Shown: positions 537 through 62,175, counted from the first letter of the stretch. The stretch: 64,000 nucleotides of DNA from Candidatus Nomurabacteria bacterium (GCA_943356415.1 CALREW010000001.1:223900-287899), one strand, 5' to 3'. Translations and numbers: made by a program. Notes: generated by a model not told the origin, from the sequence alone.

Positions 537-617
537 CCTCCCATTTTCGAAGCTGACACTTTTTAAAACCCGTGGTACAGTCTTCCCCGGTACCTCGCAC
601 ACAGGAGAAGTGCGCAC

Positions 618-1013
618 ATGTCTGACGTTCGTGGCGTTCCCAAACGCGACTTTTCCATCGTGTTCTGGGTTCATCTGGCGTTGATCCTGACCATCTGGGC
701 GTCGCCAGTCCTGTTCCCCTGGTCGGCGATTGCGATCGGGATTCCCCTCTACTACCTGCAGATCGGGGTTCTCGGAGAGTGTGTGCTGACAAGGGCCGAG
801 TTCGGCACCTTCAAGCCCACCTATGGCTTCTATGGCCATTACTCCAAGTACATCGGCCTCGGCCGCTACGCCCGGCAGATCGACTGGGCAACCGGATGGA
901 TCCTGCCAGGAGCACTCGGGATCCTGGGCTTCGTTCTCCAATACCTCGCAGGATTCGGCCCGGTTATCCGGATCGGTTTCCTACACCGTCTCGAACAATA
1001 CATCTTGCCGTAA
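618..1013 (+). CDS. small multi-TM membrane protein, DUF2784-like (tentative)
   Basis: ATG preceded by AGGAGA. Hydrophobic helices around a G-E-C-V-L-T-x-x-E motif resemble the C-P-L-T core of DUF2784. G+C-rich CDS followed by its own hairpin terminator. Confidence 0.45.
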   Translation: MSDVRGVPKRDFSIVFWVHLALILTIWASPVLFPWSAIAIGIPLYYLQIGVLGECVLTRAEFGTFKPTYGFYGHYSKYIGLGRYARQIDWATGWILPGALGILGFVLQYLAGFGPVIRIGFLHRLEQYILP

Positions 1014-1037
1014 CGTCCACTGTTCGGCAGCAAAAGG

Positions 1038-1075
1038 CCTCCCAACATCTATGGTTGGGAGGATCGTCGTTTTAA
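1038..1075 (+). terminator. intrinsic terminator
   Basis: cctcccaac-loop-gttgggagg followed by a T-tract directly after the stop at 1013. Confidence 0.55.
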
Positions 1076-1122
1076 TGGAACCGATGCCACTAAACTCTGC
1101 CCACTGGCGTTATACTTTTTAT

Positions 1123-1677
1123 ATGAGGAAGGGTAAAATAGTACACTTGAAAATAATAGGCGTCGTCGGGATGCTCGACAACCCACATGTAGGAGCGCGT
1201 TTGTGGCAGTTTATGGGGGAAGCATTTTTGCACGAGTTCCCCGACGCGACATTTACTACAGAACACTTATTCTACTTTCCCTGGCAGAAATCTAAGATAC
1301 AACGTCTTGCAGAGAAAATTTTAGACAAGCACGACACTGGGGAAGAACTTATTTTACTAGGACATAGCCTCGGTGGCATAATCGCATGCGCCATTGCTCC
1401 AAAATTCAAACACAGCAAAGTAAAGTGCGTCGTAACAGTAAGTTCTCCTCATAAACTACACTTCTTATACCGTTTCCTCGATGCTGAACCTACGCAACTT
1501 CCCTTTCCGGTGATTACCTTTGCAGATACTTTTGACACGGTAGTCCCGTCATTCCTCTCACGTTACCCGGGAAGCATCCATGGCAGCCTCCTTGCAGATC
1601 ACTTGTTCTGGTTTCTGTTTAGCAAACGTCCATCAACGATCATCGCAAAAAAGGTACGAGCCCTGGTTCCTAAGTAG
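1123..1677 (+). CDS. alpha/beta-hydrolase fold esterase/lipase-like
   Basis: G-H-S-L-G-G nucleophile-elbow motif. Upstream in-frame ATGs (1051/1075) lie inside the preceding terminator hairpin, so the start at 1123 is preferred. Confidence 0.5.
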   Translation: MRKGKIVHLKIIGVVGMLDNPHVGARLWQFMGEAFLHEFPDATFTTEHLFYFPWQKSKIQRLAEKILDKHDTGEELILLGHSLGGIIACAIAPKFKHSKVKCVVTVSSPHKLHFLYRFLDAEPTQLPFPVITFADTFDTVVPSFLSRYPGSIHGSLLADHLFWFLFSKRPSTIIAKKVRALVPK

Positions 1678-2012
1678 CCTTCTGCGCTTACTTTATCGAT
1701 GCGGGCAGCCGGCCCAGCAGCACGGACGGCGCATGCCTGATTTCAACTTCGAAAGACCTTTCTTAATTCTGATGCCTCTTGTCTCTAATTTCTTGCCAGA
1801 TGTAACCCAACATATCCACTCATTGCGAGCGAGCGGCGTAATATCCTTCCATACCGCCAACGCCGCAGGAGTTGCTGCAAGAGCTTTTCGTAGATCTGTG
1901 GGCAACGTATGTGCGACACCCGTGGAGACTCCTTTTTTAGCCATTGAGACTATCCTACCAAATCGCAGTAGAATGTATCCGCGTGAGAATCTTTCGACTC
2001 ATCGGAAACGCG

Positions 2013-2627
2013 ATGGCAGGCTCTCTTGACGTGGGTGTCGGGATGCTTATTGCCGCTTCCCTCTCCTTTGCATATGGCCTCGAGGTACACCCACCGTACG
2101 TTCTCGTTTTTGGCGCACTTTTTGCATTGCTGCCCGATTTCGACATTGTGCTACCGATACTCAAAGGAAACATCGAAGGAAATCACCGGCTTACACTATT
2201 TCACGCACCACTTCTTACGCTTGGGATTGTGGCTTTTTTTGGAGCCATCGGAAGTTTCTACGCAGGAAATATTTTCTGGCTGGTGTGTCCATTAGTCTGC
2301 GTACTGTGGCACTACATACACGACACTGAAGGTTGGTTTCTTGGAAACGGCGCCATCGCCTGGGCATGGCCCTATCGCAAAACAACATACACCTTTAAAG
2401 GCCCCACAATCCTTGAGGAAGGCTCCCATGACGAGTGGCTCACTACAAATTGGCTTAAACCAGCATCTCTTTCTATAAAAGAACTCGGGCTTGGTGCCCT
2501 GTTTGTCGGTGCAGCAATAGCGTTCTTTTATGGTTCATTCTGGGGATGCGTCGCTTTTGCGGCTGCCATTCTTTCAGTGATTGTGGCCTGGATTTCTTAT
2601 TCCTTCTTTTCAAGAGGGTTCTTCTGA
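2013..2627 (+). CDS. membrane-bound metal-dependent hydrolase (DUF457/YdjM-like)
   Basis: Several TM helices with His/Asp-containing segments (LFHAPLL, HYIHDTEGW) typical of the DUF457 family. The start is uncertain (ORF opens at 1944). Confidence 0.45.
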   Translation: MAGSLDVGVGMLIAASLSFAYGLEVHPPYVLVFGALFALLPDFDIVLPILKGNIEGNHRLTLFHAPLLTLGIVAFFGAIGSFYAGNIFWLVCPLVCVLWHYIHDTEGWFLGNGAIAWAWPYRKTTYTFKGPTILEEGSHDEWLTTNWLKPASLSIKELGLGALFVGAAIAFFYGSFWGCVAFAAAILSVIVAWISYSFFSRGFF

Positions 2628-2703: not shown

Positions 2704-3147
2704 ATGAAATCCTTGTTCCTCGCGGCAATCGCCCTCGCCGCAATCGGCACGCTGATGGGATGTTCACCTGAGCCCCCGGCAGTGCCTAACAATCCCCCGG
2801 CAGATCTCCGGACACTCACGAAGGAGGATTCGGCCGACTTCAAGCGGATGGCCGGGCAGATGAAGGAGGCGACGGGCACGCAGCTCGACGTCCTCGTCGT
2901 CGAAAATTTGGGACGCCGAAGCATCGAACAATATGCGGCAAGCGTCACCAAGCATTGGGCCATCGGTGAGACGGACCGGATCGTGCTCGTCCTCGCGGTG
3001 AAGGCGCGCGCCTTCAGGGTCGAGTACGGCCCGGATGCGCCTGAGAAATCCGTCGAGTACTTCAGACGCATCCTGGCCAACTTCGTCGGCTGGCTGCAAG
3101 GCGTGGCATGCTACCACGACGAACTCGGCACCACTTGCCGCGGGTAG
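2704..3147 (+). CDS. TPM-domain lipoprotein
   Basis: GGAGG 8 nt upstream of the ATG. Signal peptide with lipobox (LMGC). LVVENLGRRSIEQYAASV...RIVLVLAVKARAFRVEYG matches the TPM phosphatase-domain core. G+C-rich CDS. Confidence 0.55.
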   Translation: MKSLFLAAIALAAIGTLMGCSPEPPAVPNNPPADLRTLTKEDSADFKRMAGQMKEATGTQLDVLVVENLGRRSIEQYAASVTKHWAIGETDRIVLVLAVKARAFRVEYGPDAPEKSVEYFRRILANFVGWLQGVACYHDELGTTCRG

Positions 3148-3170: not shown

Positions 3171-3220
3171 GGGACAGGAAGATTTGCTTCCTGTCCCTCG
3201 CGGGGTGGCGGTTTTTCTTT
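3171..3220 (+). terminator. intrinsic terminator
   Basis: Perfect 11-bp stem gggacaggaag/cttcctgtccc, then ggcggtttttcttt. Confidence 0.6.
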
Positions 3221-3276
3221 AGCATTAACAATCAGCACTTAGTTTAAAGAATGCTTCGAAACTCAACCCACAATAT

Positions 3277-3318: not shown

Positions 3319-3888
3319 GTGCAGTATAAACTTTCTGTAGGAGAACGTCCTTTGGAAATTATCTACCCGGTGCCCAAAAGCCCCCATAGATTGGGACGTG
3401 TCGGGAAGCGGGAGTTTCAGGACTGGTATCAAAGCGTGATCGCGGCAAAAATGCTACTCGAACAAAGCCGCAGCGCGCAGGTACATGCAAAAGTACTCCT
3501 CCTGACCGCAACGAACATCGCAGGCCAAAAGCCTGAAATCGAAATCTATCTCGACGCACTGAAGGAACTCGGCGTCGAAGATGACGACACACTCGTCGTA
3601 AGAAAGGGTTTTGAGACCATTGGCCACCTGGAAGCGGCGATGGAAGTCGCACGCAAACATAAGGCACGGCTGGTTGTCATCTCAACTCTTTTGCACTCGC
3701 CACGAGTAAGGTGGTTGTGCCGAAGAAACAAGGAAGTCCATCACCGGACGGTGATTGGGATCCCCAGACCCAAAGAAGCCGTAACTGACTTAGTTCTGAG
3801 TGTTCTATTCCCTCTCATCGACATATGTGGTGGCAGGGCATGGTTCCTGGGCAAAGTTGGTGCGCGGCGCACTCACGGCAGACTGTAA
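3319..3888 (+). CDS. hypothetical protein, possible DUF218 (YdcF/SanA-like) domain
   Basis: The C-terminal half (ETIGHLEAA...LVVISTLLHSPRVRWL) resembles the DUF218 T-x-x-N / VTS-x-x-H-x-x-R core. GTG start almost leaderless; the true start may lie downstream. Confidence 0.35.
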   Translation: MQYKLSVGERPLEIIYPVPKSPHRLGRVGKREFQDWYQSVIAAKMLLEQSRSAQVHAKVLLLTATNIAGQKPEIEIYLDALKELGVEDDDTLVVRKGFETIGHLEAAMEVARKHKARLVVISTLLHSPRVRWLCRRNKEVHHRTVIGIPRPKEAVTDLVLSVLFPLIDICGGRAWFLGKVGARRTHGRL

Positions 3889-3904: not shown

Positions 3905-3966
3905 TGCCACCCTAACGAGACGAAAAGCCAAAGCTTCGTCTCACGACGGGGTGGCGGTTTTTCAAT
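3905..3966. terminator. bidirectional terminator between convergent genes
   Basis: Nested hairpins gagacgaa...ttcgtctc and gccaccc...gggtggc, followed by ggttttt. Confidence 0.5.
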
Positions 3967-4016
3967 TGCATCGCTCGCTAATCCAACATGCTTCGTGCGC
4001 GTATTATTTTATGCGG

Positions 4017-5220: not shown

Positions 5221-5886
5221 GTGAGACAGGTCGCACCATGGATCAGGCGTTCCCTCTGGCGTGCGTTTGCTATTGCAGTAGGGCTTATTTCTATAGTCTC
5301 GTGCATCATCTATGCCACCGCCCCTGAGTTCGTGCACACACTGGAAAATCAGGTACGAACCTACTTTTTAAACGAGGCGCCTGTTCCCTGTCTTGGGTTG
5401 GATAAGCGACCACGTTCAATATGCTGGAACAAAGAAATACACTCGGCACTTAAAAAGAGCGTCATTGCGGCCTTTAACGGCATCACAAGCTCGCTTATCC
5501 AAGTGCCAATTCTCATCGGCCTCTGGAAGTTCAAGCGACTTCTGTGGTGGGAAAAGACGCTGTTTTTCGTCTTCCCATTTATGCCGGCAATCATGTGGTT
5601 CTCCCCGCCCGAAGCAAAGGACAACCTGTTTTTGGCCCTTACTCTCATCACGTTGGTACCGGCCTGCAGGCAGCCCTATGAGATGTGGAGGGCGGGTACG
5701 AGAGGAGCGGTCGAGATTAAGTTCTTCGGCACCCAGTTGATCAATTGCGCCGTCTGGATGGCGTTCGCTTTTTCCATCGGAACATGGGTCGTTATCTTGT
5801 GCCAGTCGCTTATGACGCTCACGGTCATCGCCACCGTCGCGCTGTGGTGCTGGTACCGCGCCAAAGAACCTAACCCGCCGAAGTAG
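5221..5886 (+). CDS. hypothetical integral membrane protein
   Basis: Five to six predicted TM helices; no motif. Confidence 0.4.
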   Translation: MRQVAPWIRRSLWRAFAIAVGLISIVSCIIYATAPEFVHTLENQVRTYFLNEAPVPCLGLDKRPRSICWNKEIHSALKKSVIAAFNGITSSLIQVPILIGLWKFKRLLWWEKTLFFVFPFMPAIMWFSPPEAKDNLFLALTLITLVPACRQPYEMWRAGTRGAVEIKFFGTQLINCAVWMAFAFSIGTWVVILCQSLMTLTVIATVALWCWYRAKEPNPPK

Positions 5887-5978: not shown

Positions 5979-6488
5979 CTACGACACGAGTTTCTCGACG
6001 ATATATTTGAAGTGTCTTTCCGATACCGGCATAACGGAGAGTCGCGAACCTTTTGCAAGAACCAACATACCGCCAAGTTCCCTTTCGGCTTTCAGCTCAA
6101 CAAGTGATACAGGGCGCTTAAACTTTTTTACAAACTGCACGTCCACACACATCCAGATAGGATTTTCTTTGGTCGACTTCGGATCATAGTGCTCGTCTTT
6201 CTTGTCCTGAGCCGTCAAATCAGCATGTGGCTTGCTTGCCACTTTTGCGATGCCATAAATACCTGGTTCTGCGACTGAGTGGTAGAAGAGGCAGAGGTCA
6301 CCTACTTTCATACCATCGCGTATAAAGTTGCGCGCTTGGTAGTTGCGTATCCCCGTCCACGGCACGCGTTTGTCACGCGCCAGGTCGTCTATCGAATACA
6401 TCGCTGCCTCAGTTTTGATAAGCCAGTAGTTCACGAAAGGAACTATAGCAGATGACTTACCTTGTCCTGGATACGAAAAAACCGCCAT
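5979..6488 (-). CDS. EVE (PUA-like) domain protein
   Basis: WLIKTE...YSIDDL...W.GIRNYQARNF.R.MKVGDL.LFYHS...GIYGIAKV...VDVQFVKKF.RPVSL.ELKA...VLAKGSRLSVMPV is the EVE-domain signature. Confidence 0.75.
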   Translation of the reverse strand: MAVFSYPGQGKSSAIVPFVNYWLIKTEAAMYSIDDLARDKRVPWTGIRNYQARNFIRDGMKVGDLCLFYHSVAEPGIYGIAKVASKPHADLTAQDKKDEHYDPKSTKENPIWMCVDVQFVKKFKRPVSLVELKAERELGGMLVLAKGSRLSVMPVSERHFKYIVEKLVS

Positions 6489-6523
6489 GAGGCGGCTCTT
6501 CGTTCTTCACTACCTAAACGGAC

Positions 6524-6778
6524 TTAGCTAAGGTGCTTGGAGACCAACTTGGTCATCTCAAACATGTTGACCTCTGCCTTTCCACCGAAGACAACCTTGA
6601 GCTTGTCGTCAGCCTTGATATTGCGCTTGTTCTTCGGGTCCTGAAGATCATGCTTCTTGATATATGCCCAAAGTGCCTTCACCACCTCCGAGCGAGGCAT
6701 CGGGCCCTTACCTACAACTGCCTCGAGCTCTTCGCTGAGCTTCATAGGCTTCATGAACGCTGAGTTTGCTTGTGCCAC
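6524..6778 (-). CDS. SWIB/MDM2 domain protein
   Basis: LSEELEAVVGK..MPRSEVVKALWAYIKKHDLQDPKNKRNIKADDKLKVVFG matches the SWIB domain. GTG start at 6778; the internal ATG at 6754 is also possible. Confidence 0.75.
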   Translation of the reverse strand: MAQANSAFMKPMKLSEELEAVVGKGPMPRSEVVKALWAYIKKHDLQDPKNKRNIKADDKLKVVFGGKAEVNMFEMTKLVSKHLS

Positions 6779-6882
6779 GAAAATATGACTTAGCTGTTAT
6801 TACGCCCTGTGCCCTCTAGTATATACGAGGGAGAAAATACGCAATAGGGCTATCCCGTTCACGGGAATAAAACTTAACTTAC

Positions 6883-6912
6883 TTGACAAGTAACTAAAAA
6901 TATAGTAAAAAC
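6883..6912 (+). promoter_or_regulatory. putative promoter for 6943..7374
   Basis: TTGACA followed by an AT-rich -10 region, then GAGGAG 8 nt before the ATG. Confidence 0.35.
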
Positions 6913-6942
6913 AGTTTTGGAGAAAAGATTGAGGAGAAGTCG

Positions 6943-7374
6943 ATGGCGCAAGCCACAGAGCCGAGATATCAGCTGCAGAGCGTCATGAGCTACGAAAATG
7001 CGCTCACGGTGGTTGACCGCCTTGCCGACGGCCTCGGCAAGGCGATTGACGAGAAGATCCGGCCGCTCGTCGCGGTCATGATCATGTGCGACATCGAGAC
7101 ACGGATGTCGTGCGAGGGGCATGCGACGCGCAGCCGACCGCACCCCTGGGTCACCGTGTCGCTCGGCCAAGAGGCGAAGCTCAACTGCCTGCTCGGCTGG
7201 CAGAATCGCCCGGGACCGGCGAACAACCCCAACCACAACCAGTGGGTGCTCGAGAGCCATCCACACGGATGGTGCGTCACCCCCCGGAACCTAGACCAGC
7301 CCCTCGACGTGCTCCAGCGCTACGCGCTCGAGTTCGCCGAACGAATCCAGTTGATGCTCAACATCTCGAGGTAA
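6943..7374 (+). CDS. hypothetical protein (143 aa, G+C-rich)
   Basis: Clean ORF with SD and a downstream hairpin plus T-tract. Cys/His-containing; no recognised family. Confidence 0.45.
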   Translation: MAQATEPRYQLQSVMSYENALTVVDRLADGLGKAIDEKIRPLVAVMIMCDIETRMSCEGHATRSRPHPWVTVSLGQEAKLNCLLGWQNRPGPANNPNHNQWVLESHPHGWCVTPRNLDQPLDVLQRYALEFAERIQLMLNISR

Positions 7375-7391
7375 GAAATCCTCGAGCCGAA

Positions 7392-7428
7392 CCCGTCCGC
7401 AGACTATCGCGGGCGGGTTTTGCATTTC
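7392..7428 (+). terminator. intrinsic terminator overlapping the last codons of the convergent SET gene
   Basis: cccgtccgc...gcgggcggg then ttttgcatttc. The right arm lies inside the SET C-terminal codons. Confidence 0.45.
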
Positions 7429-7880
7429 AGACACCGGCACCCTTTTGGCTTGATATGTTCGTTCCAATATTCCTTGCCGTAGTCGTACGTGAGCTCTTCG
7501 CCTTCCTTGATGTTGCGTCGCGCCATGATAAACACACGATGCTTGCGCACTTCAATCTCGCAGTTGGGGCGACACGAGTGATTGATGTACCCTGCTTTGT
7601 TTATCTTTGGCCGTCCATCGATAGTTACCTTCGAATTAACTTCGAAAAGATAGAGGCTATTGCTTGTATATTCTTCCGCCTGCGAAATAAAACGGCCGAC
7701 ATACTCAATGACACACGAACCCTTAGGTATTTCACTAAACGTATAGAGACCCAAGCCTGCACTTGAGCGCTTAACTTTCAAATCAAAGTTCCCGGGATCA
7801 AATTTTAACTTTCTTTTCTTGGGTTTCGTTTTCATAGCAGAAATTAAATGGGCGCGTCGTGTACGCGCCATATCTATCAA
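7404..7880 (-). CDS. SET-domain protein-lysine methyltransferase-like
   Basis: GLGLYTFSEIPKGSCVIEYVG..., NHSCRPNCEI, ELTYDYG.EYW and a C-terminal C.C..C post-SET cluster. ORF opens with TTG at 7880; the ATG at 7871 is the likely start. Confidence 0.7.
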   Translation of the reverse strand: MIDMARTRRAHLISAMKTKPKKRKLKFDPGNFDLKVKRSSAGLGLYTFSEIPKGSCVIEYVGRFISQAEEYTSNSLYLFEVNSKVTIDGRPKINKAGYINHSCRPNCEIEVRKHRVFIMARRNIKEGEELTYDYGKEYWNEHIKPKGCRCLKCKTRPR

Positions 7881-8008
7881 TGCACGTCTGCGAGTATACC
7901 AGAGCTTTTTTGGTTTGTAGATTTATTTCTGATTTTTAGTACGCTAGCTGCGGCGTTTATGTAAGCGGCCGCGGCTTCCCAGCGGTAAATGACAGACATG
8001 GAGCCATC

Positions 8009-8671
8009 ATGGCCCCGAGCACATCGCAGCAGTCTCCCCGGCGAATCATCGCTTCAGTGAGCGACAAGGGAGGCCTCGGCTTCCTCAAGCGCTTCACCGA
8101 CACTGGTGGCTGGCAGGTCATCTCCACCGGCGGCACGTTGAAGCAGCTCAAGGAGCTCGATGTCCCCTGCACCGACGTCGAAGAGATGACCGGCATGCCG
8201 GAGATGATGGGAGGGCGGGTGAAGACTCTCCATCCCATCATCCATGGTTCGGTGCTGGCACGCCCGAGCACCAACGACATGGACCAGCTCCGGATGTACG
8301 TCAACGGCCTCGGTCTTCCGGTGGCAGACGTCGTCCCCATCGAGCTGGTCGTCGTGAACTTCTACCCGTTCCGCGCAACGGTCGAGCTGTTCAAGGAAGA
8401 CAAGGTGAGCGACGCCGACGTTGTCGAGCAGATCGACATCGGAGGGCCCGCATTGGTGCGCGCCGCCGCTAAGGCGTGCAATGCCGACGGTGGACCGCTG
8501 GTGGTCGTGGACCCGAGGGACTACGAGTGGGTGGCAGACGCGCTGCTCTCCGGCACCATCCCACCCGAGTTGCGCAGGCAGCTCATGTACAAGGCCTACG
8601 CGGCGACGGCCGACTACGACATGGCCATCGCTGCCTGGACGATCACCCGTCTCGGCGGCAGCGCTCACTGA
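8009..8671 (+). CDS. stand-alone IMP cyclohydrolase (MGS-like, PurH N-terminal) domain protein
   Basis: IASVSDKGGL..., VISTGGT, GRVKTLHP.IHG, VVVNFYPF and IDIGGP.LVRAAAK match the PurH N-terminal domain. The ORF stops after about 220 aa with no AICAR transformylase domain. G+C-rich. Confidence 0.55.
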   Translation: MAPSTSQQSPRRIIASVSDKGGLGFLKRFTDTGGWQVISTGGTLKQLKELDVPCTDVEEMTGMPEMMGGRVKTLHPIIHGSVLARPSTNDMDQLRMYVNGLGLPVADVVPIELVVVNFYPFRATVELFKEDKVSDADVVEQIDIGGPALVRAAAKACNADGGPLVVVDPRDYEWVADALLSGTIPPELRRQLMYKAYAATADYDMAIAAWTITRLGGSAH

Positions 8672-8694
8672 CACGGTCGAAGAGGCAATGGAAC

Positions 8695-8732
8695 GGGCCG
8701 CCCGACATACTGTGGCGGCCCGTTCTCTTTTC
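8695..8732 (+). terminator. intrinsic terminator
   Basis: gggccgcc-loop-ggcggccc followed by gttctcttttc. Confidence 0.55.
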
Positions 8733-8831
8733 TAAATAAAATTGAAGTACTGAAACGAAAACCCCCCCGCCCGTGCGCTTGCGCGCTAGGCGAGGGGTTT
8801 CCCGTTTACGCGGTCGGGACCGCTTCCTACT

Positions 8832-9221
8832 TCAGGCTTCGCCGGCGATGCGATCGAGCGTGCCGAGCGCGGTGACCGTGGTGCGATCGCCCTTGCAGTC
8901 GCAGGCCAGCTCATGGACGTCGCCCTCGGTGAGGTGCGCCGCATCCATCGTGTCGCCGATCGTGTTCGGCACATCCTTGACGGCGCCCAACGCGTGCGCG
9001 GCCATCGCGACCGACTCGAGCGCCGAGCCACGCACCGGAAGAGCACGCAGTTCATCGAGCTCCAGCGTCTCGCCGAGGCTGATGGACTTCAGCTTGCTGA
9101 ACCCCGGGAACTTGATCCGGATGGCAGCGGCAGCCGCAGCGGCGATTTCCTGCTTCGTGACTTCCTTCGGGATGAAGCTGGTAGCGCCGGCCAGCGGCCG
9201 GGTAGCGAGTTTGGTCGTCAT
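8832..9221 (-). CDS. hypothetical protein (130 aa, G+C-rich)
   Basis: ATG 6 nt after AGGAGA. The longer ORF (to 9437) runs into AT-rich DNA and is less likely. No family recognised. Confidence 0.4.
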   Translation of the reverse strand: MTTKLATRPLAGATSFIPKEVTKQEIAAAAAAAIRIKFPGFSKLKSISLGETLELDELRALPVRGSALESVAMAAHALGAVKDVPNTIGDTMDAAHLTEGDVHELACDCKGDRTTVTALGTLDRIAGEA

Positions 9222-9372
9222 GACGGGTCTCCTCGAGTTGGTCAGGATAGGGGGAATCCCCACCTGCCATAGACGACTGGGCGCACTTTCGAACGTGTAC
9301 TCGCCCAATCCACTATTAATGCTAGCACCGACTATTTTACAGGCAAGCCTTAGCCTGTGCTGAACACACACC

Positions 9373-10005
9373 TTGCGGCATACTACGTTTGTGAACGAAT
9401 TCACAAAAAGAGAACTCGCCACTCTCAAACGTCTCAATACCCCTGCAAAAATCCAGGATTACCTCAACGCACTTGCCTTTAATTTTGAAAAGCGCGGAGA
9501 CACGCTGATGTCGCCGCGAAAAGTTCTCGAAAAGAAAGCGGCACATTGTTTTGAAGGGGCACTCTTTGCAGCAGCAACATTGTGGGTGAACGGCCACAAA
9601 CCACTACTCCTCGACCTTGTTCCTGATATGAAAAAAGATGATGCACATGTTGTTACTCTCTATAAAGTAAACGGGTATTGGGGGGCGATCTCAAAAACCA
9701 ACCACGCAGTACTTCGTTTCCGTGACCCCATCTACAAAACAGTGCGCGAACTCGCCCTCTCCTACTTTCACGAATACTTCCTCAATACCACGGGCGAGAA
9801 AACGTTGAAGACTTTTGCTGGTCCCATCGACATGAGTCGCTTTGGAACAGCATGGCTCACCGATGAGGACGATTTGATGTATCTGCACAAGAAATTCGAC
9901 CGTCTCCCCCACACCTCATTTGTGCCGACAAAAAATAAAAAACTGCTGCGTAAAGCCGACAATGTTGAACGTAAGGCTGGTTTAATTGTGGAACAAAAAA
10001 GATAG
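9373..10005 (+). CDS. hypothetical protein with a possible transglutaminase-like Cys/His/Asp core
   Basis: AHCFEGALFAAATL then DDAHVVTLY...GYWGAI resembles the papain/transglutaminase-like fold. TTG start; weak call. Confidence 0.4.
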   Translation: MRHTTFVNEFTKRELATLKRLNTPAKIQDYLNALAFNFEKRGDTLMSPRKVLEKKAAHCFEGALFAAATLWVNGHKPLLLDLVPDMKKDDAHVVTLYKVNGYWGAISKTNHAVLRFRDPIYKTVRELALSYFHEYFLNTTGEKTLKTFAGPIDMSRFGTAWLTDEDDLMYLHKKFDRLPHTSFVPTKNKKLLRKADNVERKAGLIVEQKR

Positions 10006-10127
10006 AGTTATTTACGTGGTACGCATTTTATAGCTCTGCTATAGTGCCCCTCGGAGAGGCTTGCGTAGGTGGCCTAGGACATAAAACGCGTTCGTGCGTA
10101 ACAACTGGAAACGACTGAGAGGACGTT

Positions 10128-11438
10128 ATGGCAAAGAGAAGATCGTACCGAGTCCTTGTCGTCGGAGGTGACGGCAGGGCGCACGCGCTTTACAAGGCGT
10201 GCGAAATGAGTCCGCTTGCAGGCGAAGTGCTCTGCACTCCTGGCAATGGTGGTATCCGTACCATGAAGCGCCGCGATGTCGGTGTCATGGACTTCGTCGG
10301 ACTCGTCGCGCTGTGCGCGAACGAAGCCATCGACATCGTGGTCGTGAGTCCCGAAGCACCGCTGTGCGGTGACGGCACGATGGGCATCGTCGACTACTTC
10401 AAGGAACATGCACCCGGCGTGATGGTCTTTGGGCCAAGTGCTGGCGCGGCGCGGCTCGAAGGCTCGAAGCGCTTCTGCAAGCAACTGTGCGTCGAGAACC
10501 TCATTCTCACGGCACGCTACGACGAAGTGACCGCGACCGAACAGATCGAGCGAGTTCTCGCGACCCACGGCGTTCCCACCGTCGTCAAGGAAGACGGGCT
10601 CGCCGGCGGCAAAGGCGTTACGGTCGCTATGACGGTCGAAGATGCTCGTGCCGCCGCCATTCGCGGCATTGTGAAGGGGCCGGTCATCATGGAAGACGTG
10701 GTCACTGGTCGCGAAGTGTCGTTCATCTGCCTCAGCGACGGCAAGGACGTTCTCCCGCTGCGACCGGCGCGCGACTATAAACGCGCGTTCGACAACGACA
10801 AGGGTCCGAACACCGGCGGCATGGGTTGCTACAGCCCACTGCCGGAGTACCCGGAAGACGGCCCGGTCTATGCGCAACTGCTCACCATGGCAAATGCCGT
10901 TGCCGATGGCATCGCAGTGGAAGACTTCCCCTTCGTGGGACTTCTCTACGTCGGCGCTATGGTGGACCGCGAAGGCACGCCCTGGCTTCTCGAGGTCAAT
11001 TGCCGCGGCGGCGACCCCGAGACCGAAGTATTGCTCAATGGCTTTAAGGGCGACTTCTTCGAGTACATCGTCGCGTGCTGCGAAGGCACACTCGCGGATA
11101 TGCCGACGCCGCAGTTTGCGGGGGCGTCAGCCTGCGTTGTAGTTGCTTCGGAGGGTTACCCCGAGAAGCCTGCGCCGCACGGCCTCATCTCGCAAGACTG
11201 GCTCGCCCACATGGCGGCTCGCGGCGTCGAGGTGTTCCACGCGGGCACGACCGAAATCGCCGAAGGCGTGAAGCCTACTGGGGGCCGCGTGTTGGTGCTC
11301 TGCGCCAACGCCGCAACACACGAAGAGGCGCGTCACAAGATCTACGACGCCCTCAACTCGATACCACACCCCTTCCCAGGGGCATGGTGGCGCACCGACA
11401 TAGCCAAAGGTGCCGCACAACTCGCGCTCGACTTGTAG
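10128..11438 (+). CDS. purD: phosphoribosylamine--glycine ligase
   Basis: RVLVVGGDGRAHAL N-terminus, ATP-grasp core, length 436 aa. G+C-rich. Confidence 0.85.
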   Translation: MAKRRSYRVLVVGGDGRAHALYKACEMSPLAGEVLCTPGNGGIRTMKRRDVGVMDFVGLVALCANEAIDIVVVSPEAPLCGDGTMGIVDYFKEHAPGVMVFGPSAGAARLEGSKRFCKQLCVENLILTARYDEVTATEQIERVLATHGVPTVVKEDGLAGGKGVTVAMTVEDARAAAIRGIVKGPVIMEDVVTGREVSFICLSDGKDVLPLRPARDYKRAFDNDKGPNTGGMGCYSPLPEYPEDGPVYAQLLTMANAVADGIAVEDFPFVGLLYVGAMVDREGTPWLLEVNCRGGDPETEVLLNGFKGDFFEYIVACCEGTLADMPTPQFAGASACVVVASEGYPEKPAPHGLISQDWLAHMAARGVEVFHAGTTEIAEGVKPTGGRVLVLCANAATHEEARHKIYDALNSIPHPFPGAWWRTDIAKGAAQLALDL

Positions 11439-11467
11439 TCGAAGCGCCAACCCAAACAAGGGCACGG

Positions 11468-11500
11468 CCCTCCTGCGCAAGCGGGAGGGCCGGGTTCTTT
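11468..11500. terminator. bidirectional terminator (purD / glucokinase convergent)
   Basis: ccctcc tgcgcaagc gggaggg followed by a T-tract. Confidence 0.5.
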
Positions 11501-11509
11501 CTACTTCTT

Positions 11510-13389: not shown

Positions 13390-13393
13390 GTGA

Positions 13394-53028: not shown

Positions 53029-53208
53029 ATGTTCATTCGACATCTCGCTATCGCGCTCGTTGCGTGCACTGTTTGCACCGGCTGCGACACGGTGGCCAAG
53101 CTTGTCACCGCACTTGCCGACAGCGAGACCAGGCCGCCGGCCTGGGACAAGCCAACCGGCAGCTATCATCCAGACAGGCTCAGAAAGGGCTACACGCCCC
53201 CGAAGTAG
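53029..53208 (+). CDS. 59-aa putative lipoprotein, not in the supplied ORF track
   Basis: GGAGG 8 nt upstream of the ATG; translation MFIRHLAIALVACTVCTGCDT...; followed by a hairpin plus T-tract. G+C-rich. Confidence 0.35.
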   Translation: MFIRHLAIALVACTVCTGCDTVAKLVTALADSETRPPAWDKPTGSYHPDRLRKGYTPPK

Positions 53209-56627: not shown

Positions 56628-56891
56628 CTAGTTCTTGGTGTTCTCGCCGCCGAGGTCCTCGATCGCAATGAGGACGCGCGAGGGGATCTCGTTGAGATCC
56701 TTGGGTCCGAGGGTCTCGGTGCCTGGGCTAGCCTCAGTGCCGCTGCTGAGCCAGCGCTTCAGGCTCCAGCTGCCATCCGGCTTGACCGTGCCGCGGTAGC
56801 TATAGTCGTTGACCGTAATGGCCACAGTCGTCCCACCGACGACTGGTGCGGCGGCCGCAGTGGCCAATCCGCTTGGTGATGCCTGTGTCAT
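56628..56891 (-). CDS. hypothetical protein (88 aa, G+C-rich)
   Basis: ATG 6 nt after AGGAAA; shares a bidirectional terminator with rnr. Confidence 0.35.
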   Translation of the reverse strand: MTQASPSGLATAAAAPVVGGTTVAITVNDYSYRGTVKPDGSWSLKRWLSSGTEASPGTETLGPKDLNEIPSRVLIAIEDLGGENTKN

Positions 56892-57089: not shown

Positions 57090-57368
57090 ATGTGCGTCGA
57101 CAACATACGAACGAGTACCCGGTTGCACATCAAGGTGCCTGGCGGAGTGACGGACGAGGTCTTCATCGACGTCCACACCTTTCTCGCATCTCGTGGAAAA
57201 GTAACCGAGAGTCAGCGTAGTGATCGGTACGACCCCAGTCTCATCATCGTGCAGTTCGATCATGAGCAGGACGAGCGTGAACTGATCGAAGCGCTACAGA
57301 TGGAACTGCGGACAAATCAGGGAGTTGATACTAATGTGGAAATTCAACCACCCCGCACGGCCGGATAA
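57090..57368 (+). CDS. hypothetical protein (92 aa, G+C-rich)
   Basis: AGGAGGTG 5 nt before the ATG; downstream GC hairpin. Confidence 0.4.
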   Translation: MCVDNIRTSTRLHIKVPGGVTDEVFIDVHTFLASRGKVTESQRSDRYDPSLIIVQFDHEQDERELIEALQMELRTNQGVDTNVEIQPPRTAG

Positions 57369-57428: not shown

Positions 57429-59681
57429 CTACTTTGCTACCGCCACCGCTTCCTCAAATTTCACCGACAATAATTTGGAGGCGCCCTCTGCACCCATCGT
57501 CACTCCATAAAGCACACTTGCACGAGACATCGTCTCGCGGTTATGAGTTATCACAATAAGTTGCGAGTGCTTCGCCAACGTTTCAATCATGTCACCGTAG
57601 CGGCGGCTGTTTGCCTCGTCGAGCGCAGCATCAGTTTCATCGAGTATCAAAAACGGTGGCGGGTTCACCTGGCTCATCGCGAAGATAAGCGCGATTGAAG
57701 TAAGTGCTCTCTCGCCACCCGAGAGCATGTGGAGGCCTTTGATACGCTTGTGCGGAAGCGAAACGCCAATTTCAATACCCTCTTCAATCTCCTCTTCGGG
57801 TTCTTCCTCCGGGGCATCCTCACCACCTTCTTCGGGTGCGCCTCGACGGCGCTTCGCTTCGCGAACCAAATTGAGGCTTGCCTCTCCACCGCCAAACATC
57901 ACTTTGAAAAACTCACTGAACGCATCGTTTACTTTTACGAGACCGGTATTGAAACGCGTCGTGAGCGTTGCGGTAAGTTCGTCAATAAGGCTACGCAGCG
58001 ATACTTGTGACGCGGCGAGGTCAGAGAGTTCGCGCTCAAGAAATTCATCGCGTTCTTTAGCTTCACGATGCTCTTTGAGTACCTCCTCCGAAGACGCACC
58101 TCCTTCGCTTTCGAGTTTTATTTTCATCTTCTCCAACTTGCGGCGACGCTCTTCCTGTACCGAGCGCTCCTCCGTCATCGCTTCAGCAGAAGACACCGGG
58201 TATTCCCCGTACGTCAAAAGCTCACGACCGATCAAGACAGCGCCTTCTTCTCGCTCCCGTTTAAAATCGTCTTCCTCACGAGAGAGCATCGCCTCCTTCG
58301 AGGAAATCGAGAGGATCGTTTGCTCTACCTCGCTGCGCTCGGTCATAAGGGTGAAGAGTTCTCGTTCAGCCTCACGTGCCCCTGCTTGCGCATCTTCCAT
58401 TTCTTTACGCATCGCTGAAACACGACTGCGTAGTGCCTTTTCTTCCTCTTCAGCCGAAGAGAGTTCTTTCGTAAGTTCGGTTATGCGCACTCTGCGCTCT
58501 TCAGCTTCTTTTGTTACCTGAGGCAATTCACCTGCTTCTTCTGGTTTTACCGACTGAGCAAAGCGCTCTGCGACGGAAAGTGCTTCAGTGACTGCGGCAG
58601 AAAGAAGTTCGAGTGTGCCCTTTTCACGGGCTTCCTTTAACCGACCAACAAGGTCAGAGAGAAACGTGCGCACTGACTTCAATGGCACCGTTGCAGCATC
58701 TTCATCTTGCGCGCGGCGAGAAAGCTCCGAGAGACGGCGAGAGAGAAACGCGTACTCGCCTTCAACGCGCGAAAGATCGCGAAGAAGACCCTCCTTGCGG
58801 TCACCCGCTTTACGCATGTCTGCCTCAAGCGCCATAACGGCAGAACTTCCCTTTGTTGCGGCTCCTGCTGCATCAAGTTCCGCACGTAGCGCAGAGATAC
58901 GATTGTCCATCGCTGCACGTTTAGTCTCTGGCTCGTGGCGCGCTTCTTTCAATTCCTCGCGACTATGGGTGAGATACAGGTCTTCGCGCCTCAAATACTC
59001 GCGGTACCGCTCTGAGAGTTCTGCACGCAAAATATTTACCTCTTCTATTTTCTTTACCTGGCGCTCAAGAAACCGCAGGTGTGGCGCAAGTTCGCGACGC
59101 AGGCTTTCAACCTGGCCCATATTTTCTCCAGTCTTCTGCAGTTTCCGTTCAGCTTCCTCACGCTTATAGAGATAGGCTTTAAGACCGAGCGCGTCCTCGA
59201 GCATTTCTCGGCGCTCGCGGTTAGTGGCAGAGAGAATGCGATCTGCTTCACCTTGGGAAATAATATGGTGTCCAGAAGCACCGATATTTGCCTGGGCCAA
59301 TAATTCTGCAATGTCACGCAAACGCACCGACGTACCATTAAGGAGATAGTCATTGACGCCATCACGATGAACGACACGCTCGATAGACACTTCATCAAAG
59401 TCGATATTGAAAAGACGGTCACCATTGTCAAAAAGTAGTTTTACCGCCGCACGATTGCCGCGAGGCACGAGTTTTGAGCCACCGAAAATAAGATCTTCGC
59501 CGCGCTTACCGCGCATGCTCTTCATTGACTGCTCGCCGAGTACAAAGCGGAAGCTCTCGGCAACGTTTGATTTGCCTGAACCGTTTGGACCCACAATCGA
59601 GGTGATAGTGGTTCCAAAATCGAGCGTTGTCTTTTTGGCGAACGACTTAAAGCCGTTAAGCTCTATGCTCTTGAGGCGCAT
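57429..59681 (-). CDS. smc: SMC-like chromosome partition ATPase (short, 750 aa)
   Basis: N-terminal Walker A (GPNGSGKSN), C-terminal signature LSGGE and Walker B, and a central coiled coil. No recognisable hinge. Confidence 0.7.
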   Translation of the reverse strand: MRLKSIELNGFKSFAKKTTLDFGTTITSIVGPNGSGKSNVAESFRFVLGEQSMKSMRGKRGEDLIFGGSKLVPRGNRAAVKLLFDNGDRLFNIDFDEVSIERVVHRDGVNDYLLNGTSVRLRDIAELLAQANIGASGHHIISQGEADRILSATNRERREMLEDALGLKAYLYKREEAERKLQKTGENMGQVESLRRELAPHLRFLERQVKKIEEVNILRAELSERYREYLRREDLYLTHSREELKEARHEPETKRAAMDNRISALRAELDAAGAATKGSSAVMALEADMRKAGDRKEGLLRDLSRVEGEYAFLSRRLSELSRRAQDEDAATVPLKSVRTFLSDLVGRLKEAREKGTLELLSAAVTEALSVAERFAQSVKPEEAGELPQVTKEAEERRVRITELTKELSSAEEEEKALRSRVSAMRKEMEDAQAGAREAERELFTLMTERSEVEQTILSISSKEAMLSREEDDFKREREEGAVLIGRELLTYGEYPVSSAEAMTEERSVQEERRRKLEKMKIKLESEGGASSEEVLKEHREAKERDEFLERELSDLAASQVSLRSLIDELTATLTTRFNTGLVKVNDAFSEFFKVMFGGGEASLNLVREAKRRRGAPEEGGEDAPEEEPEEEIEEGIEIGVSLPHKRIKGLHMLSGGERALTSIALIFAMSQVNPPPFLILDETDAALDEANSRRYGDMIETLAKHSQLIVITHNRETMSRASVLYGVTMGAEGASKLLSVKFEEAVAVAK

Positions 59682-59731
59682 TGCCCGCTATTGTAACAAA
59701 GAAAAAAGCCCCCTTGAGGGCCCTCTTCTGC

Positions 59732-60427: not shown

Positions 60428-60432
60428 ATCAA

Positions 60433-61380
60433 TTAGCGTTTCCGGTTCTTCGGTCGCTCAGTTACTCGAGGCATCTGAGAGGCCATCTCATCACCCACCA
60501 ACTTTCCCACCGCAAGCGTCACAATCGGCAACATGTCGCCGTAGAAGTTGAGATCGAGGCAATCTTTCACCTTAAACCAACGCGCATCATCGAGACCCCC
60601 TTTCTCTTCAAGCGTAATGTCGTCGTAGGGCGCTTCAGCCAAAAAGTATGTGACGTGTTTGCGCTTCTTTCCCACCTCTGGGTCTGACGCAATGTACTCG
60701 TTTTCTCCTATCTTCTCTTTCAACTCAACATCGAGCCCGAGTTCTTCTTTCATCTCGCGAATCGTTCCCTGCTCGATCGTCTCTCCTTCTTCAATCTTTC
60801 CTTTAGAGAGGGTCCAATGTCCGAAGATATCGTGAACGAGGGCCAGATAGACTTCGCCGTTATGGCGCGCGTATACCACTGCGCCACCGAGGTTTAGAAC
60901 GGGCATTTCCTCGTACGGAATTTCCTTTTTCTTTTTCTTGCTGGTCTCGTCTTTCCCAGGCTCGCCAAGTTCTTTGTACACCGCGCCAAGAACGCCGTTT
61001 ACAAACTTACCTGAAGTGTCTCCACCGTAACTTTTTGCCAGCTCTATCGCCTCATTGATGGCGACTTTTGCAGGCACTTGGTTTCGGTCTGAGAAAAGAA
61101 GCTCGTAGAGGCCGAGGCGCAATATATTGCGGTCGACCATAGCGATACGGTCGATAGGCCACTCAGGAGCGGCTTTTTCTATAACGAGATCGAGGTCCGG
61201 CCGGCGCGAAAGAATACCGCGCAGGAGTTCCTGCATAAACGGTACATCGCCTGCTTTAGGCGCGAACTCATTGGCATTGCGAATAAGCGCCTCGAGAGTT
61301 GCTTCCTGCGGCAATTCGCGGAAGTCCCACTCGAAGAGGGTTTGCATTACTACGGACCGTGAGAGGTGCCGATTCGCCAT
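60433..61380 (-). CDS. nusB: NusB-like antitermination domain fused to a Nudix hydrolase domain
   Basis: The N-terminal ~150 aa are NusB-like (R..AR..A.Q.L...). The C-terminal part carries a Nudix box (GKIEEGETIEQGTIREMKEELG). Confidence 0.6.
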   Translation of the reverse strand: MANRHLSRSVVMQTLFEWDFRELPQEATLEALIRNANEFAPKAGDVPFMQELLRGILSRRPDLDLVIEKAAPEWPIDRIAMVDRNILRLGLYELLFSDRNQVPAKVAINEAIELAKSYGGDTSGKFVNGVLGAVYKELGEPGKDETSKKKKKEIPYEEMPVLNLGGAVVYARHNGEVYLALVHDIFGHWTLSKGKIEEGETIEQGTIREMKEELGLDVELKEKIGENEYIASDPEVGKKRKHVTYFLAEAPYDDITLEEKGGLDDARWFKVKDCLDLNFYGDMLPIVTLAVGKLVGDEMASQMPRVTERPKNRKR

Positions 61381-61435
61381 GTCAATCAGTCAAAAGAGCG
61401 TTCAATGAACCTAATAGACCTGAAGGAGAACGGGG

Positions 61436-61660
61436 CTACTTCGCAGATTTCTTCGCTGCGCGCTTGATGGTCTTTGCGGCCTTTTTCGAGGCTGCACCGG
61501 CCATAGACTTACCGCGATACGAACCGCACGAAGGGCATGCACGATGGCGCATCGTTGGCGCTCCGCAGGAAGCACAATTCGCCACCGCAGCGGACACCAA
61601 CGCGTGGTGCGACCGGCGGTTGCGGGTATGAGCCCTGGTGTGGCGCATTCGGACTACCAT
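61436..61660 (-). CDS. rpmF: 50S ribosomal protein L32 (C4 zinc-ribbon form)
   Basis: MRHTRAHTRNRRSHHAL then C..C...C..C and a Lys-rich tail. The ORF opens at 61732 but the conserved start is near 61660. Confidence 0.6.
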   Translation of the reverse strand: MVVRMRHTRAHTRNRRSHHALVSAAVANCASCGAPTMRHRACPSCGSYRGKSMAGAASKKAAKTIKRAAKKSAK

Positions 61661-61805
61661 AAAGGGCACTATAGCCAAACCGTGCTTAAAACGCAACGCC
61701 AGACACCTGTATATGTTGTGAGGAAAAATCAATGCGCCGCCCGGAGGGGTCCGGACGGCGCGTGTAGGGCGGGCTTGGAGTCCGCTCTATATATTGTTGC
61801 CGAGC

Positions 61806-62066
61806 TCAGTGGCTCGGCGCGATGACAGGCGCCTTGACGCGCCGCAGCGCGAGGATATCTGGCGATGCCAGGGCGAAGTTGTCGCAAGTCTTGGGCGGCT
61901 TGTCGACATCAGCCCGTTTCCGGCAGCCAAACTTGCACTGCTTGCCGATGGTGACTTCGACACCATCGCAGCTCCTGCACGGCACATCGGGCGAAAACGC
62001 ACCGATGAAAAATGCAGTTGCCTTTTCGTCGACTGGCCCTGAGCCAGCGATCATACCCGTACTCAT
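61806..62066 (-). CDS. small four-Cys protein (C-x2-C...C-x3-C), DUF1289/YdhL-like? (G+C-rich)
   Basis: GGAGTG SD and ATG; PCRSCDG...CKFGC cysteine pattern. Confidence 0.35.
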   Translation of the reverse strand: MSTGMIAGSGPVDEKATAFFIGAFSPDVPCRSCDGVEVTIGKQCKFGCRKRADVDKPPKTCDNFALASPDILALRRVKAPVIAPSH

Positions 62067-62175
62067 CTCAGTTCACTCCCCAAACGCGATTGACACTTTT
62101 TTACAGCCCGCTTGTATCGCCTCAGCGACCTTCCCGAACTGCAAGCCTTAACTGTAGGCCGACAATTGGCCCTAG

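Follow-up and report, generated by a model that had tools for sequence, protein, structure and literature searches.

A 64,000-nucleotide stretch of DNA from a Candidatus Nomurabacteria bacterium (GCA_943356415.1, CALREW010000001.1:223900-287899; hereafter the window) carries two classes of protein-coding genes that differ both in synonymous base composition and in the architecture of their predicted transcripts. About 17 accessory genes, here called class S, are interspersed among backbone genes (class L), either one at a time or together in a block of 6 kb; they are rich in G+C at third codon positions (GC3) and are led by Shine-Dalgarno (SD) sequences, whereas most first genes of the backbone appear to be leaderless. 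The new aspect is that these compositionally alien accessory genes persist and are coupled to transcript architecture. The explanation that we favor, with about even confidence, is that class S consists of old cassettes that were acquired laterally from G+C-rich, SD-using bacteria, have been inherited vertically since, and are actively held at their GC3 by a force specific to the class. The whole analysis covers this one 64-kb window and a handful of related contigs.

A preliminary description of the window had listed G+C-rich genes interleaved in a backbone of lower G+C. In a 400-bp profile, G+C stays near 50% apart from islands of 60-67% at the sites that it named, and GC3 recomputed for every named open reading frame (ORF) bears the list out almost entirely. 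Rather than forming a single continuous distribution, per-gene GC3 is bimodal, with means of 0.51 and 0.78 (two-component Gaussian mixture, Bayesian information criterion -79.8 versus -61.5 for one component), and the rich mode holds 13 of the 14 single ORFs in that list along with five block genes. One listed ORF, 57090-57368, has a GC3 of only 0.61 and a probability of belonging to the rich mode, P(rich), of 0.10; another, 5221-5886 on the plus strand (GC3 0.67), had been overlooked. The rich ORFs span 0.71-0.96 and backbone genes 0.39-0.63. First and second codon positions (GC1, GC2) and amino-acid composition are nearly equal in the two classes, so the shift is synonymous, and a G+C content driven by amino-acid use is ruled out. 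A strand or replication effect was likewise rejected, given that class S lies on both strands, shares them with the backbone, and has equal C/G and T/A skews at third positions; evolutionary rate alone is no better a candidate, since YdjM, DnaG and DsbA evolve fast (45-54% identity) without high GC3. Outside class S, raised GC3 (range 0.67-0.73) occurs in the ribonucleotide reductase (RNR) small subunit (0.73), SWIB (0.69) and L32, with a codon pattern of the highly expressed type.

By content, class S includes five purine-pathway genes, three other genes of recognizable family and about nine small proteins without a family match; several of the small proteins begin with signal- or lipoprotein-like sequences, as judged by eye. 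The genes are as follows, with SD strengths given as energies of the duplex with the anti-SD and terminator strengths as hairpin energies.

618-1013, plus strand: class S, 131-aa membrane-like protein, GC3 0.75; SD GGAG, -7.4 kcal/mol; terminator -17 kcal/mol; promoter-like site 553-581; no match in Pfam or NCBIfam.
2704-3147, plus strand: class S, TPM-domain protein (PF04536, E = 2e-11) with a lipoprotein-type signal (by eye), GC3 0.78; SD AAGGAGG, -11.6 kcal/mol; terminator -23.8 kcal/mol.
5221-5886, plus strand: borderline GC3-raised ORF, GC3 0.67; a proximal -10-like box, hence of the leaderless type.
6943-7374, plus strand: class S, 143-aa protein without an assigned family, GC3 0.85; SD GAGGAG, -9.3 kcal/mol; terminator -22 kcal/mol.
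8009-8671, plus strand: class S, stand-alone IMP cyclohydrolase (PurH N-terminal domain; Pfam MGS and AICARFT_IMPCHas), GC3 0.85; aligns to positions 4-195 of 510 in the NCBIfam purH model, the AICAR transformylase part being missing; terminator -27.9 kcal/mol.
8832-9221, minus strand: class S, 129-aa protein without an assigned family, GC3 0.84; SD GAGGAG, -8.9 kcal/mol.
10128-11438, plus strand: class S, purD (GAR synthetase; Pfam GARS_N, GARS_A, GARS_C), GC3 0.74; terminator -33.6 kcal/mol.
16264-16668, plus strand: class S, 134-aa protein without an assigned family and with the highest GC3, 0.96; SD -5.9 kcal/mol; terminator -24.8 kcal/mol.
17537-17797, plus strand: class S, Usg family (PF06233, E = 6e-35), GC3 0.81; SD GGGGGA, -8.6 kcal/mol.
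19139-20215, minus strand: class S, purC (SAICAR synthetase; PF01259), in the block 19139-25155, GC3 0.80; terminator -32.6 kcal/mol.
20273-21691, minus strand: class S, purB (adenylosuccinate lyase; Lyase_1 and ASL_C), in the block, GC3 0.83; SD -6.4 kcal/mol; terminator -26.8 kcal/mol.
22027-22641, plus strand: class S, GNAT acetyltransferase (PF13302), in the block, GC3 0.76; terminator -25.5 kcal/mol.
22763-23932, minus strand: class S, 389-aa protein without an assigned family, in the block, GC3 0.75; promoter-like site 23975-23947; terminator -30 kcal/mol; neither a Pfam nor an NCBIfam match.
24058-25155, plus strand: class S, purK (N5-CAIR synthetase; ATP-grasp, preATP-grasp, PurK_C), in the block, GC3 0.76; SD -6.2 kcal/mol; terminator -21.5 kcal/mol.
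39829-40521, plus strand: class S, 230-aa protein whose N terminus has a hydrophobic stretch (by eye), between a PD-(D/E)XK nuclease gene and rpoD, GC3 0.80; 11/12 promoter match at 39745-39773; terminator 40552-40577.
50951-51166, plus strand: class S, 71-aa ORF between rpoBC and trmD, GC3 0.86; promoter-like site 50872-50899; terminator 51185-51212; no SD, and no homolog in the related genomes compared.
53029-53208, plus strand: candidate class S lipoprotein ORF of 59 aa, unconfirmed, GC3 0.75 in the plus frame versus 0.55 in the minus frame; antisense to the 5' extension of a NADAR ORF, whose domain spans only residues 113-235 of the minus-strand ORF.
56628-56891, minus strand: class S, 87-aa ORF, GC3 0.78; SD GGGGAG, -7.6 kcal/mol; terminator 56593-56572.
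57090-57368, plus strand: small SD-led ORF, not GC3-rich; it bears the strongest SD of the window, GGAAGGAGG, at -13 kcal/mol.
61806-62066, minus strand: weak class S member, 86-aa ORF, GC3 0.71, P(rich) 0.99; SD GGGGAG, -8.0 kcal/mol; a terminator was looked for and none was found.

Within the block, a spacer of lower G+C lies at about 21.7-22.0 kb.

The two classes also differ in their expression signals. Canonical SDs and terminators of their own, each a G+C-rich stem followed by a T tract, had been attributed to the G+C-rich genes, and both attributions hold: duplexes with the anti-SD have a median energy of -6.2 kcal/mol in rich genes versus -1.4 kcal/mol in the backbone (Mann-Whitney p = 0.001), an SD of -6 kcal/mol or stronger precedes 9 of 17 rich versus 5 of 47 backbone genes (Fisher p = 9e-4), and a hairpin of -10 kcal/mol or stronger with a T tract lies within 70 nt 3' of 15 of 17 rich versus 13 of 46 backbone genes (p = 3e-5; median hairpin energies -24.8 and -4.0 kcal/mol). 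As had been noticed, the terminator hairpin of 6943-7374 reaches into the convergent SET gene, overlapping its stop end (7404). A TANNNT box just 5' of the start codon is the signature of leaderless transcripts; such a box ends 4-13 nt 5' of 20 of 44 backbone starts and of none of the 17 class S starts (p = 5e-4), with a frequency of 8% at random positions. The comparison extends to 10 Adlerbacteria-like genomes: among 74 orthologous starts of backbone genes, a proximal -10 box precedes 37 and an SD just 4, so leaderless starts are the native norm of the clade. These patterns imply that most backbone genes would start as leaderless transcripts, with the -10 box lying just 5' of the ATG, at a distance of a few nucleotides. 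The split between SD-led and leaderless genes recurs in four related contigs (L004, L005, L096 and L097), where median SD energy is -7.9 versus -2.4 kcal/mol (p = 1e-5). Operon-internal backbone genes such as GH1 use an SD, and the SD as a cause of high GC3 was rejected on the same grounds, since strong-SD genes of this kind (GH1, GH42-like, HD) have a GC3 of 0.44-0.56.

Evidence on promoters is more divided. The preliminary description had placed E. coli-like -35/-10 hexamers upstream of each cassette; good sigma-70 promoter-like matches are indeed found 5' of 618, 23932, 24058, 39829 and 50951, and sigma-70-like sites lie 35-60 nt 5' of several cassettes, but the total of promoter-like matches is not above that in shuffled sequence (16 vs 13.4, 10 vs 12.6 and 9 vs 11.3). 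An Rfam scan of the window gave no match, and thus no known riboswitch or other RNA in the class S leaders.

The lineage of the window can be read from its backbone, for which the marker is:

43751-50605, minus strand: fused rpoB-rpoC, 2284 aa, with 14 RNA-polymerase Pfam domains in one ORF, GC3 0.61.

This fused protein is 78-82% identical to those in metagenome-assembled genomes (MAGs) labelled Candidatus Adlerbacteria, Paceibacterota or Patescibacteria, and of 80 Paceibacteria loci retrieved, most have the fusion at near full length, contig permitting. Alongside it the backbone holds rpoD, dnaG, hisS, truB, a class I ribonucleotide reductase, trmD, a KH protein, rpsP, RNase R or RNase II (an exact look-up of RNase R returned no record), a short SMC, rnc, a NusB-NUDIX fusion, rnhB, SET, SWIB and EVE proteins, and a ROK-GH1-cupin-GPI sugar block. 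Pfam assignments agree with the synteny described earlier (dnaG-rpoD, rpsP-KH-trmD, rnc-smc), and ten of the closest genomes keep the orders smc-rnc-nusB and rpsP-KH-trmD-rpoBC-dnaG-rpoD-...-hisS-truB. Judged by these sequences, the source is a member of the Patescibacteria, class Paceibacteria, close to Cand. Adlerbacteria. Relatives that share this backbone order, at about 78% rpoBC identity, differ widely in overall GC3, the extremes being 0.47 (L056) and 0.90 (L011), so genome-wide G+C moves fast in this clade.

Abrupt switches of composition at the bounds of coding sequences are what an artefact might produce, and the explanations offered had included chimerism of the assembly or bin and engineering or artificial generation of the sequence. 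However, positions 6615-21438 are 100% identical to the Logan assembly of ERR5863124, positions 7323-17223 are 99.97% identical to the ENA assembly, and an NCBI contig of 425,570 bp carries the same proteins; the junctions are the same in all three. No paper was found that mentions the run accessions. In a population known from other runs (SRR247509xx), at 95% identity, the sequence is colinear with the window for 16 kb, through 13 class junctions, and three more distant lineages also share this layout. Identical assemblies together with a colinear 95% population exclude both chimerism and a synthetic origin, and we regard the probability of an artefact as negligible.

Codon usage separates class S from genes under translational selection. 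Genes of a highly expressed set (rpoBC, S16, L32, KH, the RNR small subunit and SWIB) favor GGT, CGC, CGT and NNC, and also AAG and CAG, with CTG, CGG, GGG and CCC at 0.01-0.05; ordinary backbone genes have the most A/T-ending of the three patterns at twofold codons; and in class S every G/C-ending codon is raised, including CTG (0.29), CGG (0.23), GGG (0.15) and CCC (0.31). If class S were simply a highly expressed class whose GC3 arose from selection for C/G-ending codons, the raised GC3 of rpoBC, the RNR small subunit, SWIB and L32 (0.61-0.73), reached through NNC, AAG and CAG, would be a precedent, but class S uses the very codons that highly expressed genes shun, which indicates that its bias is not translational selection, and it evolves fast (see below), the opposite of highly expressed genes; we consider this explanation very improbable. 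Nor does class S represent the neutral state of the genome: ordinary genes are more A/T-ending than selected genes, so that mutation pressure runs toward A/T, and the idea of a neutral class S beside a backbone selected for A/T was rejected because mutation does not push toward G/C.

Comparisons with relatives indicate that the mosaic is old. The closest comparison is L006, from the 95%-identical sister population; L006, L007 and L008 are identical, leaving two close haplotypes. The sequence nearest to purD is a variant at 96%; next come proteins at 56%, 53% and 53%, and no other exceeds 43%. The contigs of the 53% relatives, L004 and L005, have purD at the same site (GC3 0.78 and 0.75) and share the order IMP cyclohydrolase, x, hyp210, (x), purD, ROK, GH42-like, EamA, GH1, GPI, x, Zip. 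Their mosaic is the same. In L005, GC3 is 0.75 for purD, 0.49 for ROK and 0.90 for the ORF before Zip; in L004, a contig of 61% GC, the class S counterparts are again highest, at 0.78-0.95 versus 0.65-0.81. Individual orthologs in L004 include IMP cyclohydrolase (57.5% identical, GC3 0.84) and the protein of 8832-9221 (36% identical, GC3 0.94), and the positional counterparts of 16264-16668 have a GC3 of 0.89-0.95 in L004 and 0.90 in L005. In L096 and L097, purB, purC, purK, IMPDH and Usg stand at 0.76-0.87 (purC 0.78 and 0.86, respectively; purK 0.83 in L097) among neighbors at 0.40-0.66. The borderline ORF 5221-5886 has a 75% identical counterpart in L006, where the gene-calling pipeline called the plus frame.

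These relatives are distant enough to be informative about decay. Conserved fourfold codons of backbone orthologs are 0.32-0.38 identical versus 0.25 by chance, that is, near saturation. If all genes shared one substitution process, a rough calculation gives about 35% as the most that could survive of an initial GC3 excess in each lineage, so that GC3 would be expected at or below about 0.66-0.69; class S GC3 is 0.74-0.96 in three lineages. Composition above the decay bound at near-saturated sites indicates that it is maintained rather than a relic. The phenomenon is specific to the subclade, since the pur operons of Paceibacteria farther away, a Kaiserbacteria contig among them, are ordinary and show no GC3 excess; where islands were sought elsewhere, distant Paceibacteria loci showed merely mild heterogeneity or the usual ribosomal-gene effects. 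A metagenome scan with a ROK alignment for further relatives yielded nothing above 43% identity.

Massive recent horizontal transfer, with donor composition still unameliorated, had been the first explanation proposed for the mosaic, and the atypical GC3, codon usage and cassette anatomy, with an alphaproteobacterial Usg among the genes, are what it would predict. For the shared cassettes it is refuted, because the same genes recur at the same sites, with an equal GC3 excess, in lineages whose purD is 53% identical and whose fourfold sites are close to saturation. Outside the subclade, homologs come no nearer than 43-55% for purD and purB or 75-78% for Usg; among named sequences, those most similar to purB are patescibacterial; and synonymous divergence (dS) is equal in the two classes (0.10 for class S and 0.13 for class L against L006). 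As an account of the mosaic, recent transfer is thus highly unlikely.

Constraint differs between the classes even where synonymous divergence does not. Against the 95% population, the pooled ratio of nonsynonymous to synonymous divergence (dN/dS) is 0.28 (95% confidence interval 0.22-0.36) in class S and 0.08 (0.06-0.11) in class L, with values of 0.26 for 6943-7374 against L006 and 1.04 for 16264-16668; in deep comparisons, class S proteins are 26-57% identical and their neighbors 66-85%. By these measures class S is evidently under relaxed constraint. An internal control for both composition and divergence lies in their midst:

11510-16065, minus strand: ROK, GH42-like, EamA, GH1 and cupin GPI genes, GC3 0.44-0.56; L004 and L005 orthologs 66-83% identical; dN/dS 0-0.05; TATAAT 7 nt 5' of the GPI start.

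Along the locus, dS against L006 is a mosaic of values from 0 to 0.56, which shows recombination. Part of the control block, 11510-15508 (ROK, GH42-like, EamA and GH1), is 98.3-99.0% identical to L006 with a dS of 0.03-0.07, the flanks being 85-94% identical with a dS of up to 0.56, which suggests a recent recombination or sweep.

Where the cassettes came from is clearest for Usg. The Usg of the window is 75-78% identical to proteins of Reyranellaceae, Dongiaceae and other Alphaproteobacteria, its ortholog in the sister population being hardly closer at 80%, and a Reyranellaceae contig with Usg has 68% G+C and a GC3 of 0.88-0.97; from these matches, Usg is clearly an inter-phylum capture from a G+C-rich donor. 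The Usg of L097 (6863-7126) is 71% identical to other database Usg sequences and below about 63% to that of the window, which hints at separate captures or very fast divergence. For purD, relatives outside the subclade (43% or less) carry mixed names, mostly alphaproteobacterial, and no named one belongs to the Patescibacteria. A check of best-match taxonomy, as the preliminary description had proposed, is therefore split: Usg points to another lineage, purB points to the Patescibacteria (51-55%), and purD is distant with mixed names. Horizontal origin as such fares similarly, upheld by the alphaproteobacterial Usg and by a cassette anatomy that looks imported in a leaderless clade, and opposed by purB. 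Presence at syntenic sites is patchy, several gaps holding different class S genes in different lineages. The gap of 39829-40521 is empty or holds other ORFs in Adlerbacteria-like relatives, and the small cassettes of the 39-62 kb region have no homolog in 10 Adlerbacteria-like genomes of the same backbone order, apart from a weak 36% match to 56628-56891 in the same gap of L063. Integron-type gene cassettes were rejected as a model for want of a repeat family and an integrase, and because some cassettes have promoter-like sites of their own.

Variation of gap content between lineages is also what would be seen if cassettes in fixed gaps were recurrently overwritten by alleles from a G+C-rich pool, of relatives or hosts, that refreshed their composition. 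G+C-rich syntenic relatives do exist (L004 at 61% GC and L011 at 64%), class S proteins have diverged much further than their neighbors, the L097 Usg is nearer to other sequences than to that of the window, and most single-gene transfers in Patescibacteria occur within Patescibacteria (PMC12455944). Yet a search of 5.8 billion proteins found no closer donor allele for purD, purB or Usg, the syntenic orthologs being the best matches; the purD sequences of the subclade are mutually nearest; and the dS against L006 is the same in both classes. We judge recurrent replacement to be improbable.

Our preferred explanation, old foreign cassettes that are compositionally maintained, must itself be set against several observations. 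Outside the subclade, the named matches of purB are nearly all Kaiserbacteria, Parcubacteria and other Patescibacteria, and ordinary pur operons without a GC3 excess exist in other Paceibacteria, so that part of class S may be native rather than foreign. Homolog searches took in purD, purB and Usg, and a donor was found for Usg alone. No integrase or transposase appears among the Pfam matches, and the window has no tRNA and no flanking repeat family. The amino-acid composition of class S is close to that of the backbone, which is unexpected for proteins from donors of 65-68% GC. Recombination, as seen in the dS mosaic, is not stronger in class S, which leaves the gene-conversion idea discussed below without direct support. 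Finally, the evidence comes from 64 kb of a genome.

Some of these points would follow naturally from a native genome with two regimes, in which mostly ancestral patescibacterial genes turned, within this subclade, into SD-led units of one gene each and had their GC3 raised by gene conversion or another local force, with Usg as an exception. Such a genome would account for the patescibacterial relatives of purB, the pur operons of Kaiserbacteria and of another Paceibacteria contig, and the shared amino-acid composition; a GC3 excess that stays steady over saturated synonymous divergence fits it as well, as do the rise of all G/C-ending codons and of dN/dS that gene conversion predicts, and a backbone GC3 that spans 0.47-0.90 among syntenic relatives indicates a strong and variable GC-driving force in the clade. 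It leaves unexplained, however, why, in a clade of leaderless genes, it is precisely the GC3-rich ones that have a leader and an SD, and it is contradicted by the clearly alphaproteobacterial Usg, by purD without a named patescibacterial relative, and by the lack of class S genes from the same gaps of Adlerbacteria-like genomes. We think it unlikely, though likelier than the other alternatives.

Returning to the capture of foreign cassettes, the sequence of events might be as follows. The ancestor of the subclade would have taken in complete cassettes from G+C-rich, SD-using bacteria (documented for Usg, presumed for the others), most of them with a leader, an SD and a strong G+C hairpin terminator and about five with a promoter-like site. 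The cassettes would then have been inherited vertically under relaxed constraint. As their GC3 has not decayed despite synonymous turnover, a class-specific, G+C-favoring process has to be postulated to maintain it, on this account as on the native one, the candidates being GC-biased gene conversion at flexible loci that recombine often and selection on the cassettes. Gene conversion would fit in two respects, since G/C-ending codons are raised indiscriminately and dN/dS is elevated. A bolder generalization, which we offer tentatively and with some doubt, is that one small genome here holds two synonymous-site equilibria, near 0.5 for leaderless genes and at 0.75-0.95 for captured SD-led cassettes, that outlast synonymous saturation.

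Several further features of the window touch on these genes. Long antisense ORFs lie on GC3-rich genes at 8054-8674 (minus), 10074-10877 (minus), 19100-20188 (plus), 20210-21220 (plus), 23875-24885 (minus) and 39760-40524 (minus); in L007, whose DNA is identical to that of L006, the automatic gene caller chose the antisense frame for IMP cyclohydrolase (7742-8533) and did not call the Usg ORF. A repeat of 39 nt (79% identity; 16702-16740 and 16790-16828) covers the terminator of the ORF with a GC3 of 0.96 and the Zip promoter, and recurs within the 5' coding region of Zip; the spacer immediately 5' has a 44-nt indel relative to L006. A 25-nt direct repeat (3201-3225 and 3947-3971, 88% identity), consisting of terminator tails, flanks a DUF218 gene at 3319-3888. 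Between a convergent NUDIX gene and a 152-aa ORF, a perfect 18-bp stem with A and T runs (34118-34161) looks like a bidirectional terminator.

On the backbone side, starts with a TANNNT box and without an SD include those of GPI (16066-16090), hisS (35415-35438), smc (59682-59705) and the PD-(D/E)XK nuclease (39724-39745). A 25-nt block of 88% identity, TATCTCACGGGGTATAAT/TATACT, lies 5' of both GPI (16072-16096) and rpoD (41871-41895) and is probably a common extended promoter. Unusual in architecture are the NusB-NUDIX fusion (60433-61380, minus strand) and the SMC (57429-59681, minus strand), which has only 750 aa, as is, in class S, the IMP cyclohydrolase domain that stands alone. A cluster of eukaryote-type chromatin domains (EVE, SWIB and SET; 5979-7880) is kept in L005 and L006, with two SET genes in L005.

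Compositional oddity is routinely taken as a sign of recent transfer or contamination, and MAG curation tools delete such regions; here the oddity is genuine, heritable and old, and is tied to a second, independent property, that of SD-led cassettes in a leaderless backbone. Were the pattern to extend genome-wide, it would provide a natural setting in which to learn whether mutation, gene conversion or selection determines the synonymous G+C of bacteria, a practical way to mark the flexible gene pool of Patescibacteria, and possibly a clue to hosts. Should two equilibria truly coexist, bacteria would possess a G+C-driving force specific to a gene class, whether gene conversion at flexible loci or selection tied to expression; the "recency" of transfers estimated from composition would be untrustworthy in these lineages; and G+C-rich alphaproteobacterial donors such as Reyranellaceae might indicate the physical host of the episymbiont. 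The purine-pathway genes of the subclade act as loosely constrained accessory genes, which fits a nucleotide-scavenging symbiont.

Among known systems, the nearest in outline are the "class III" or alien genes, reportedly recognized by Medigue et al. in 1991 through their atypical composition. Class S resembles them as a minority with atypical GC3 and non-adaptive codons among core genes, with accessory functions or functions not assigned, and with at least one foreign member, but it is G+C-rich rather than A+T-rich and consists mostly of single genes with one 6-kb block. Transferred genes are said to ameliorate under the model of Lawrence and Ochman; unlike genomic islands, class S has borders without an integrase, tRNA or repeats, and its composition is unameliorated past synonymous saturation. 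Leaderless and SD-led genes are mixed in the group C genomes of GeneMarkS-2 (e.g., Mycobacterium and Deinococcus), and the window is like them in that first genes of the backbone appear leaderless and operon-internal ones such as GH1 are SD-led, whereas here SD-led single-gene units form a separate compositional class. We know of no other coupling of SD-led single-gene units with a compositional class, and a literature search found no paper joining "leaderless", "Shine-Dalgarno" and "Patescibacteria".

GC-biased gene conversion in bacteria has been reported with effects of a few percent (Lassalle et al. 2015, PMC4450053). As in that process, in the bimodal GC3 of grasses and in vertebrate isochores, all codon families are affected here, independently of translational optimality, and dN/dS is raised; in contrast to bacterial gene conversion, the difference is far larger and sharper, is bounded by single genes and coincides with transcript architecture, and the recombination visible in the dS mosaic is not class-specific. 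Patescibacteria carry many islands and singly transferred genes, up to 13% of genome length, acquired mostly within Patescibacteria and in some cases from other phyla, and ancient transfers are said to escape composition-based detection by ameliorating (PMC12455944). That account does not describe a split between SD-led and leaderless genes, and the old cassettes found here, still compositionally distinct, contradict its assumption that old transfers ameliorate.

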